64,000 nt of DNA. Origin: an uncultured Clostridia bacterium. Its GTDB lineage: Bacteria; Bacillota; Clostridia; TANB77; CAG-508. The position numbers and the translations under genes are program-made. Location of the stretch: assembly GCA_944386755.1 (NCBI GenBank), contig CALXCF010000001.1, positions 2,069-66,068 on the forward strand. The letters are read 5' to 3'. Under the pieces are notes generated by a model. It did no database searches. It saw nothing but the letters and a program-made list of their open reading frames with translations, and was not told where the DNA came from. This document shows, one piece after another, positions 38,003 to 38,180 of the stretch; the first letter of the stretch is position 1, and each line of letters starts with the position of its first letter.

Positions 38003-38180
38003 TATTTCCACAATTTATAAACTTTTTTTATCTATTTTTTTCTAATTTATTCTATTTTTTTCTAATTTTTTTGAATTTTTTATAATTTTCTTTTTATTTT
38101 TATTTATTTTTTTATTAAATTAATTATATTAAATAAAAATAAAATTACTTTATTTTTGATTTAAATGATTTTTATTTTTT
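38003..38180. repeat. ~190-bp 'DnaA-box + AT-repeat' unit, copy U1
   Basis: TATTTCCACAATTTATAAACTTTTTTTATCTATTTTTTTCTAATTTATTCTA...ATTATATTAAATAAAAATAAAATTACTTTATTTTTGATTT. Aligns with 42698, 45434 and 49411. Confidence 0.75.

Follow-up and report, generated by a model that had tools for sequence, protein, structure and literature searches.

Phased A-tract arrays are intrinsically curved DNA, and curved or UP-type promoter elements are reportedly known from the plc promoter of Clostridium perfringens, the Alu156 promoter of Bacillus subtilis phage SP82 and, as the UP element, from rrnB P1 of Escherichia coli. Another kind of promoter carries boxes for the initiator DnaA; examples are those of dnaA, sda, ywlC and yydA in B. 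subtilis and of dnaA, nrdAB and mioC in E. coli. In B. subtilis, DnaA is a transcription factor at box-bearing promoters, mostly a repressor, and its stable binding needs several boxes (PMC2533591). Features of both kinds are combined in a non-coding cassette of ~175 bp that was analysed here in a 64-kb stretch (64,000 nucleotides of contig CALXCF010000001.1; "the window" in the following) from the origin region of an uncultured Clostridia bacterium with a genome of ~26% GC. The cassette is real, conserved and clade-specific, and is present in four copies, U1 to U4 (Table 1). It is most likely a variant of the DnaA-regulated promoters and of upstream curved DNA, and is not a second origin.

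With the DnaA-regulated promoters the cassette shares consensus boxes in or beside a putative promoter region near replication genes, and the boxes on either side of its putative start would fit the occlusion or roadblock repression described for B. subtilis (PMC2533591). It differs in that the box sits in a fixed unit together with a phased A-tract array, that this unit is duplicated 3–5 times per neighbourhood, and that most copies have one box, to which binding is only predicted. The likeness to curved-DNA and UP elements is that A5-7 tracts recur at intervals of 10 bp and border a -35-like hexamer on its upstream side, in a Firmicute of low GC content. Here, however, the arrays comprise 5–9 tracts versus 3 in plc, the DnaA box parts the array from the promoter-like hexamers, and a further promoter-like module precedes the array, which may therefore be transcribed.

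The repeated cassette and its anatomy

The initial annotation of the window described four colinear copies of a unit that starts with a DnaA box, and these proved to be real. The four stretches were aligned colinearly by MAFFT with a mean column identity of 81%; the head TCCACAATTTATNAACT is present exactly four times in the 64 kb (at 38007, 42701, 45437 and 49414, all on the + strand); and an nhmmer profile made from homologous units gave exactly four matches in the window. The pairwise global identity of U4 was 0.85 to U3, 0.79 to U2 and 0.82 to U1. Because the window is very AT-rich, shuffles of matching composition were used as the reference. These scored 0.66–0.68, yielding z = 12–16 for the U4 comparisons, and the similarity thus persisted under the composition-aware statistics in which, according to the initial annotation, it might have disappeared. 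The annotation also placed every copy immediately 5' of a minus-strand transcription unit, which is correct for U1, U2 and U4 but not for U3 (Table 1). The orientation of the units always agrees with that of the downstream genes, and the units are read here along transcription, as the reverse complement of the + strand of the window. The units are not flanked by inverted repeats of the kind that bracket miniature inverted-repeat transposable elements and similar mobile repeats. The spacers that hold the units are 653–1659 bp long and have 10–14% GC, versus 20–27% GC for ordinary spacers of the window.

Table 1. Coordinates of the cassette copies, their parts and the surrounding origin-region features (positions in the window).
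Feature	Position	Strand	Remarks
U4	49410-49584	minus	dnaN-recF spacer, upstream of recF; nhmmer E = 1e-25
U3	45434-45607	minus	1.66-kb spacer beyond gyrB terminator; 826 nt upstream of TraC-like 168-aa open reading frame; nhmmer E = 5e-24
U2	42698-42880	minus	in front of the VirB4-like (CD1110-type) ATPase gene, ~90 nt from its ribosome-binding site; nhmmer E = 3e-21
U1	38006-38167	minus	~105 nt upstream of 240-aa open reading frame; degenerate DnaA box; nhmmer E = 5e-19
Predicted module P1 of U4	49539-49579	minus	AAAATCAAAAATAAG 49565-49579; weak -35 AAGACA 49562-49567; 17-nt spacer; TATAAT 49539-49544
P1 TATAAT equivalents	45562-45567 (U3), 42835-42840 (U2), 38123-38128 (U1)	minus	
10-bp phased A-tract array of U4	49432-49488	minus	equivalents 45455-45552 (U3), 42719-42805 (U2), 38025-38113 (U1)
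DnaA box 1 of U4	49411-49419	minus	TGTGGATAA; equivalents 45434-45442 (U3), 42698-42706 (U2)
Predicted module P3 of U4	49375-49404	minus	TTGAAA, 18-nt spacer, TAAAAT
DnaA box 2	49338-49346	minus	perfect; overlaps conserved recF start (ATG TGG ATA A); 73 bp from box 1, same orientation
Remainder of dnaN-recF spacer	49611-50103	minus	three further phased arrays (49611-49686, 49776-49830, 49987-50040), DnaA box 49860-49868, inverted DnaA-box pair
Canonical oriC unwinding module, not part of the repeat	~51281-51321	minus	dnaA-dnaN spacer; two tandem DnaA boxes, GGACC cluster, six CTA DnaA-trios, then AT-rich
dnaA	51569-52921	minus	
dnaN	50119-51237	minus	
recF	48268-49359	minus	conserved start is the second ATG, at 49347
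gyrB	46268-48196	minus	
gyrA	34157-36607	minus	

The sense strand of the unit is ~75% A. The first block of the unit is AAAATCAAAAATAAG, which has G- or C-containing flanks and is followed, after exactly 17 nt, by AATATAATT containing TATAAT. Then comes TAAAATAAATTAAAACGAAAATAAT, which separates the TATAAT block from 5–9 repeats of TAGAAWAAAW (TTCTAWTTTW on the + strand), that is, A-tracts phased at 10 bp. The array is succeeded by AGTT(T/G/A)ATAAATTGTGGA(T/A)AA, comprising a -35-like hexamer and the DnaA box (TGTGGAWAA), and by an A-rich leader in which T or G is enriched at fixed offsets (44 distinct units), readable as T(T/G)RAAA-N18-TAAAWW; a ribosome-binding site (RBS) and start codon come last. 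The blocks AAAATCAAAAATAAG, AATATAATT and AGTTnATAAATTGTGGA are near-invariant, and the TATAAT module is the most invariant of all, with zero indels between its halves in 29 lineage-distinct units. For the array, Tandem Repeats Finder gave a period of 10 and 5.7–9.6 copies per unit. The arrays have at least three A-tracts of at least four bases about one helical turn apart, as is characteristic of curved DNA, and their predicted curvature is in the window's top 1–3% (wedge model); the arrays would be expected to be curved in vitro. Each array directly borders a TTGATA or TTTATA hexamer, and ~15 bp separate it from the downstream -35 of predicted module P3.

Both promoter-like modules, P1 and P3, are positionally conserved, and each is preceded by a phased A-tract array. 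Altered -10 hexamers of P1 (in related contigs, designated here by L numbers) mostly keep T1, A2 and T6 (TATAGT twice, TAAAGT, TATATT), the exceptions being TGTAAT in L024 and TATAAA in L013; in L028 the P1 module stands alone in front of recF. Behind gyrB there is a terminator-like hairpin (46221-46254), and behind dnaN a DnaA-box hairpin (50071-50105). The genes downstream of these hairpins therefore need promoters of their own, and the unit is the conserved element in the spacers concerned. In a DnaA-regulated promoter, a box matching TTWTNCACA would be expected between about -60 and +40; the box is present and conserved, the promoter being predicted as P1 or P3. If P3 is taken as the promoter, the predicted positions are about -50 to -42 for box 1 and about +24 to +32 for box 2. 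A further pairing, P2, with the head hexamer TTGATA as -35, was rejected, as there is no conserved -10 at 16–18 nt, and a sigma-H-type reading of the conserved AAAGAAT was discarded by eye, the spacing being wrong. The hairpin directly after the dnaN stop is an inverted DnaA-box pair with a stem of 12–15 bp; it is clade-conserved, being present also in L003, L014, L019, L024, L025 and L092 (an example sequence from other species is TCCACAATTTATTAATAAATTGTGGA), and its right half is the head of the unit.

The sequence TTWTCCACA occurs 24 times in the window versus 2.05 expected, a 12-fold excess concentrated at oriC, and the dnaN-recF spacer (~770 bp) has five perfect DnaA boxes in total. The boxes of the units read TTATCCACA in U4, TTTTCCACA in U2 and U3 and ATTTCCACA in U1, in agreement with the earlier grading as perfect, with one mismatch and weaker. 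The degenerate box of U1 (TGTGGAAAT, 38004-38012) is intact (TGTGGAAAA) in the orthologous copy of L113 and L114. Across 44 distinct units, box 1 has A at positions 8–9 in 98% and no base other than T or A at position 7. Among the 14 units obtained independently of the search pattern, nine keep TGTGGAWAA while the adjacent bases vary, which makes it the best-kept core of the head. At recF the start reads ATGTGGATAA, coding for M-W-I, and the start codon overlaps a perfect DnaA box. The start-to-start distance between box 1 and box 2, counted over distinct sequences, was 70, 72 (three times), 73 (11 times), 82 (twice), 83 (twice) or 93 bp, and in two further copies a second box stands 31 bp away. 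These spacings (31, 70–73, 82–83 and 93 bp) are close to 3, 7, 8 and 9 helical turns, a pattern that would be expected if DnaA on both boxes must face the same side. Another inverted pair of TTTTCCACA boxes, 23 bp apart, is found at 9835-9866 and ends at the start of the open reading frame (ORF) 9859-11010, which is another candidate for a DnaA-regulated gene beyond the origin region.

The initial annotation had also offered an unwinding or origin module as an explanation of a DnaA box followed by AT-rich repeats, an option against which the position of the canonical module in the dnaA-dnaN spacer speaks. That module reads TTATCCACATTATCCACA-GGACC-CTACTACTACTACTACTA-AAAATATTTATATAAATTATAAAAT, the DnaA-trios being (CTA)x6. 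The same architecture has been shown experimentally for unwinding at oriC2 of C. difficile and proposed for clostridia generally (PMC7561715). As in the basal unwinding system of B. subtilis and of C. difficile oriC2 (PMC7561715), the DnaA box of the units precedes AT-rich DNA on the same strand. The units differ, however, in having one box only, no GC cluster and no trinucleotide trios: they read TTWTCCACA-ATTTATNAACT-T-rich, without 3-nt periodicity, whereas an unwinding module combines two or more boxes with a GC-rich cluster directly behind them and with three or more DnaA-trios (3'-[G/A]A[T/A]-5'). Nor do they lie where such a module is found, at the GC-skew switch and in the rpmH-dnaA-dnaN intergenic regions; the skew minimum is near 52 kb and the four units sit 2–14 kb to one side of it.

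Distribution, conservation and descent

The 24-base head pattern was used to scan representative genomes, one per species, of 185,579 species. The 23 loci found belong to 18 representative genomes, all of them metagenome-assembled genomes (MAGs) of uncultured Clostridia from human, chicken or mouse gut. All 23 lie in one ori-proximal gene string, dnaA-dnaN-U-recF-gyrB-U-TraC-like-U-VirB4-K-rich (U marks a unit), and the copies are thus not dispersed as those of a mobile repeat would be. The ori-proximal restriction in this genome-wide scan refers to exact matches of the 24-base pattern; an unbiased sample was obtained from metagenome loci anchored on RecF. Here, RecF identity to that of the window fell into two groups separated by a sharp gap, with 70–82% for members of the clade and at most 47% for everything else. 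A look-up of the exact RecF sequence of the window gave no record. The nhmmer profile matched clade loci only, and a profile search of ~70 dnaN-recF loci from the other organisms (RecF at most 47% identical) gave zero matches. Orthologues of U4 are present upstream of recF in most clade genomes, L026 carries a whole unit, and in a second species (L113, L114) the same four-position layout was found, including the copy upstream of the 240-aa gene. Viral contigs scanned with the head pattern gave nothing, and a megablast of 37000-46300, which holds U1–U3, against plasmids gave no match.

The yardstick for conservation was the identity of dnaN and recF at four-fold degenerate sites, which for the window and other species is 0.50–0.69; as ~0.55 is expected by chance, these sites are saturated. 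Compared across these same species, the units are 0.76–0.80 identical versus ~0.65 for shuffles (z = 9–12). Identity at this level despite saturated synonymous sites indicates constraint.

The history of the copies can be read from L022 and L008, in which the unit in front of VirB4 matches the recF leader colinearly; the match takes in a decayed RBS, ATGTGGAAAA and ATGTGGAAAATATAAAAATAAAA, all ahead of the RBS that belongs to the VirB4 gene. In both, the former recF start keeps TGTGGAAAA despite the decay of the RBS and the reading frame. Colinearity that includes the decayed start implies that the block downstream of gyrB received its copy from the recF upstream region, initial recF codons included. 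At the level of sequence, this establishes the direction of copying, from recF into the block. Of the two alternatives in the initial annotation, copying of the recF upstream region into an "island" or replacement of the native dnaN-recF spacer by island-type DNA, the former is thereby supported, and U4 is the likely source copy. In a neighbour-joining tree the units group by genome or lineage and not by position, which fits gene conversion, recombination or repeated copying between the copies.

The block that received the copies is not a recent island. The TraC-like, VirB4 and K-rich ORFs follow gyrB in every clade contig that reaches far enough, except L026, and the type IV secretion system (T4SS)-like block of the gyrB-gyrA interval keeps its synteny across species whose RecF is only 74–80% identical, as do the IstB-like, DnaD-like and T4SS coupling-protein genes beyond gyrA. 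On this evidence from synteny the block is ancestral to the clade. The T4SS-like block is also present in L030, which has no units.

Function of the cassette

We consider that the unit has an even chance of being a clade-specific regulatory cassette of the recF 5' region, a curved-DNA promoter with a DnaA operator that was copied locally to three more sites. This corresponds to the DnaA-regulated promoter of the initial annotation, which is the best reading. The box is retained in most of the pattern-independent units while its flanks vary. In the mechanism that we propose, P1 would be a promoter module of the sigma-A type, in which an A-rich upstream block and a weak -35 precede, across a 17-nt spacer, the invariant TATAAT, and the curved A-tract array would serve as an upstream activating element similar to the UP element. 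The DnaA box lies just upstream of the second, weaker promoter-like module and, at recF, a second box overlaps the start codon. DnaA bound to one box, or to a pair of boxes that face the same side of the helix, could then couple downstream transcription to the state of the initiator, and with boxes at about -45 and +25 repression would be the most likely effect. From recF the cassette was copied into three other spacers, one beyond the gyrB terminator, one ahead of VirB4 and one ahead of the 240-aa gene, and copies within one genome would continue to exchange sequence.

Several observations weigh against a DnaA-regulated promoter. The loci of the genome scan were fetched by the head pattern, which inflates the apparent invariance of the head, and the DnaA box is lost in five of the 14 units not selected in this way. 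The cassette is dispensable, as L027 and L030 are clade members with short dnaN-recF spacers that have no unit; the spacer of L025 consists of the inverted DnaA-box pair and an array only, L028 and L029 retain the TATAAT module only, and L024 has a different TATAAT where the DnaA head would be. Most copies away from the recF position have a single box with one mismatch. Since the leader has an A-tract periodicity of ~10 bp, the quantised box spacing could stem from 10-bp slippage or from selection for curvature and not from DnaA-DnaA contact. A consensus promoter scan, used solely to name hexamers, gave 101 matches versus 115 expected in DNA of 88–90% AT, and hence no enrichment; three different promoter-like pairs can be drawn per unit, none of them decisive. 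Finally, 826 nt separate U3 from the next gene, whose own canonical promoter, TTGACA-17-TAAAAT, is at 44751-44723.

The main alternative, which we regard as unlikely, is that the units are accessory DnaA-binding loci flanking oriC. A box on bent DNA would titrate DnaA or modulate its nucleotide state, as the DnaA-box clusters of B. subtilis or datA and DARS of E. coli do, with intrinsic curvature in place of IHF, and the position in front of genes would be incidental. Like those loci the units are non-coding, box-bearing and outside the unwinding region, and intergenic DnaA-box clusters are known in B. subtilis (PMC2533591). Every copy in every genome lies within ~15 kb of oriC on one side, the boxes are helically phased, the dnaN-recF spacer is rich in perfect boxes, and U3 is not next to a gene. 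However, boxes must be locally dense for stable DnaA complexes to form in B. subtilis (PMC2533591), whereas most units offer one box, often with one mismatch; with one box per unit and two at recF, the density of a datA-like titration site (several boxes in a few hundred bp) is not attained, and the whole dnaN-recF spacer is borderline. It also speaks against titration that the strongest conservation is outside the box, in the TATAAT module, that several lineages lost the box yet kept the rest, that orientation follows the downstream genes, and that some clade members have no unit. That the ori-proximal set of cassettes forms a dedicated DnaA-activity control system of a reduced-genome Clostridia clade, analogous to datA, DARS and the Bacillus clusters and with curvature replacing IHF-type proteins, is decidedly unlikely; if true, local copying would tune initiator titration rather than gene expression. 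The units could alternatively be neutral low-complexity DNA, that is, AT-rich, slippage-prone spacer that was duplicated locally and homogenised by gene conversion, with composition and concerted evolution accounting for the conservation. Grouping of the copies by genome, the changes of array copy number in 10-bp steps, the extreme composition, and the variable number and order of modules among clade members, up to their absence, are in line with this. We nevertheless consider it unlikely: identity between species is far above that of composition-matched shuffles while synonymous sites are saturated, and gene conversion within genomes cannot explain conservation between genomes. In addition, specific G/C-containing positions and whole blocks are invariant in more than 25 lineage-distinct units, the spacing within the TATAAT module is constant, and the DnaA box survives at the former start codon after its coding role has gone.

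Readings that draw on the plasmid-like neighbours fare less well. In-phase 10-bp direct repeats upstream of several transcription units, next to genes derived from plasmids or integrative and conjugative elements (ICEs), resemble plasmid iterons or parC-type centromeres, and could be operator or centromere-like sites for a small DNA-binding protein (ParR or omega type) of the T4SS-like block that co-regulates operons as in plasmids. This is very unlikely, because the probable source copy is upstream of recF, L030 has the block but no units, no ribbon-helix-helix or ParR-like gene was identified, and the repeat is little beyond an A-tract with TAG punctuation. Iterons and par sites have 17–22-bp or ParR-type repeats beside a rep or par gene, whereas the units have a 10-bp A-tract unit, are chromosomal and clade-wide, and neighbour recF and the VirB4-like, TraC-like and 240-aa genes without a cognate Rep or ParR gene. 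An origin of the plasmid or ICE type, or a further unwinding module, in which box and AT-rich repeats would act as DNA-unwinding element or iterons and might be serviced by the DnaD-like and IstB-like genes at 31848-33870, is highly improbable. The box and the AT-rich repeats do have the orientation of the oriC module, and T4SS-like as well as DnaD-like/IstB-like genes are nearby; the complete canonical module and the GC-skew switch are, however, in the region of the dnaA-dnaN spacer, the units have neither GC cluster nor trios, and their repeats are 10-bp phased A-tracts of the curved-DNA type and not 17–22-bp iterons or 13-mers. There is no adjacent Rep gene, the plasmid and viral searches gave no match, and 4–6 "origins" per 12-kb stretch in the chromosomes of many species are implausible. 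Least of all can we credit a structured leader RNA (riboswitch or attenuator) or small RNA. A long conserved region upstream of genes would suit such an RNA, but the putative 178-nt leader folds at -6.8 kcal/mol (z = -0.2 versus shuffles), the region gave no Rfam family at gathering score other than tRNAs, and the sense strand is mostly A.

Gene neighbourhood and significance

The genes dnaA, dnaN, recF, gyrB and gyrA are all on the minus strand. The gyrB-gyrA interval holds the TraC-like 168-aa ORF, an inserted Rpn/PDDEXK_2 gene, the CD1110-type VirB4 gene, a lysine-rich 595-aa ORF, the 240-aa ORF and a 126-aa ORF. The 168-aa ORF, which the initial annotation took for a VirB4 fragment, is a separate clade-conserved gene, and its homologues in L113 and L114 carry a precomputed match to PF26593 (TraC-like). 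A reading of this ORF as the N-terminal part of a split VirB4 is rejected, as VirB4m and VirB4c already cover a full CD1110-type VirB4; tblastn of this ORF against plasmids gave no match. In its promoter region (44700-44790, minus strand) two Spo0A-box-like motifs (TGTCGAA, TGACGAA) precede the canonical TTGACA-17-TAAAAT, and in two other species these are kept as TGTCGAA/TGTCGTA and as TGTCGAT twice (L030 4900-4975; L092 10185-10250). The gyrB-proximal half of the same spacer (45790-46220, minus strand) is less AT-rich and has several ATCTTAGCTCGAAT-like motifs every ~60–190 nt, which are also found in L030 (4400-4850) and L092 (9700-10120); within the window alone, the ATCTTAGCTCGAAT motif in the gyrB-TraC-like spacer is not above chance.

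In the window (40758-42594) the VirB4 gene has a frameshift between Walker A and Walker B, as it has in the close relatives L001, L018 and L021, while in L008, L013, L017, L022 and L030 the two halves share one frame. The open frame runs from ~42594 after a strong RBS (AAAGGAGGA) and has no ATG, GTG or TTG start; its N-terminus matches VirB4, and an ATA or ATT start seems possible. The 595-aa ORF (39008-40795; 12% GC) is extremely rich in lysine and asparagine, has internal tandem repeats and no Pfam match, and can be aligned between species only over the N-terminal 60–100 residues and the C-terminal end. The 240-aa ORF (37179-37901) has no Pfam domain; it has 4526 homologues in the protein collection, the best 120 of which are 81–100% identical, and is conserved better than RecF across many MAGs. 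Such conservation points to a clade-specific gene of importance shortly upstream of gyrA.

Both sides of gyrA (27474-33870 and 37179-44608; L111, L113, L114) carry genes for a coupling protein, a T4SS pilin-like ORF and a PemK toxin, together with DnaD-like, split IstB-like, TraC-like and VirB4 genes, in clade-wide synteny. These T4SS-like and replication-loader-like genes look like an old remnant of a conjugative element, not a recent island. Between the ends of the IstB-like ORF and gyrA lies a perfect 49-nt inverted repeat (TTAGGGACGTGCCAAATCGTTTCATTTTGAGCCAAAAGGGACAGACCTA; 33867-33915 and 34112-34160, arms 196 nt apart), which may represent either a small mobile element or a hairpin of great length. 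In L026 (3340-9805) gyrB is followed by unrelated genes of higher GC content (citrate transporter, LysR regulator, MatE protein, response regulator with HD domain) and the T4SS-like block is absent, which may reflect a rearrangement or a chimeric contig.

The analysis corrects a tempting misreading, as the DnaA box beside AT-rich repeats is here not an origin, and pinpoints the true module in the dnaA-dnaN spacer. A whole regulatory cassette appears to have been copied locally to serve new transcription units, accompanied in some lineages by the donor gene's first codons. The helical phasing of two boxes across indels provides a simple testable prediction on DnaA as a transcription factor on bent DNA. 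Overall, the cassette is a concrete, sequence-defined candidate for DnaA-coupled control of recF and of a fixed T4SS-like block in widespread uncultured gut Clostridia.

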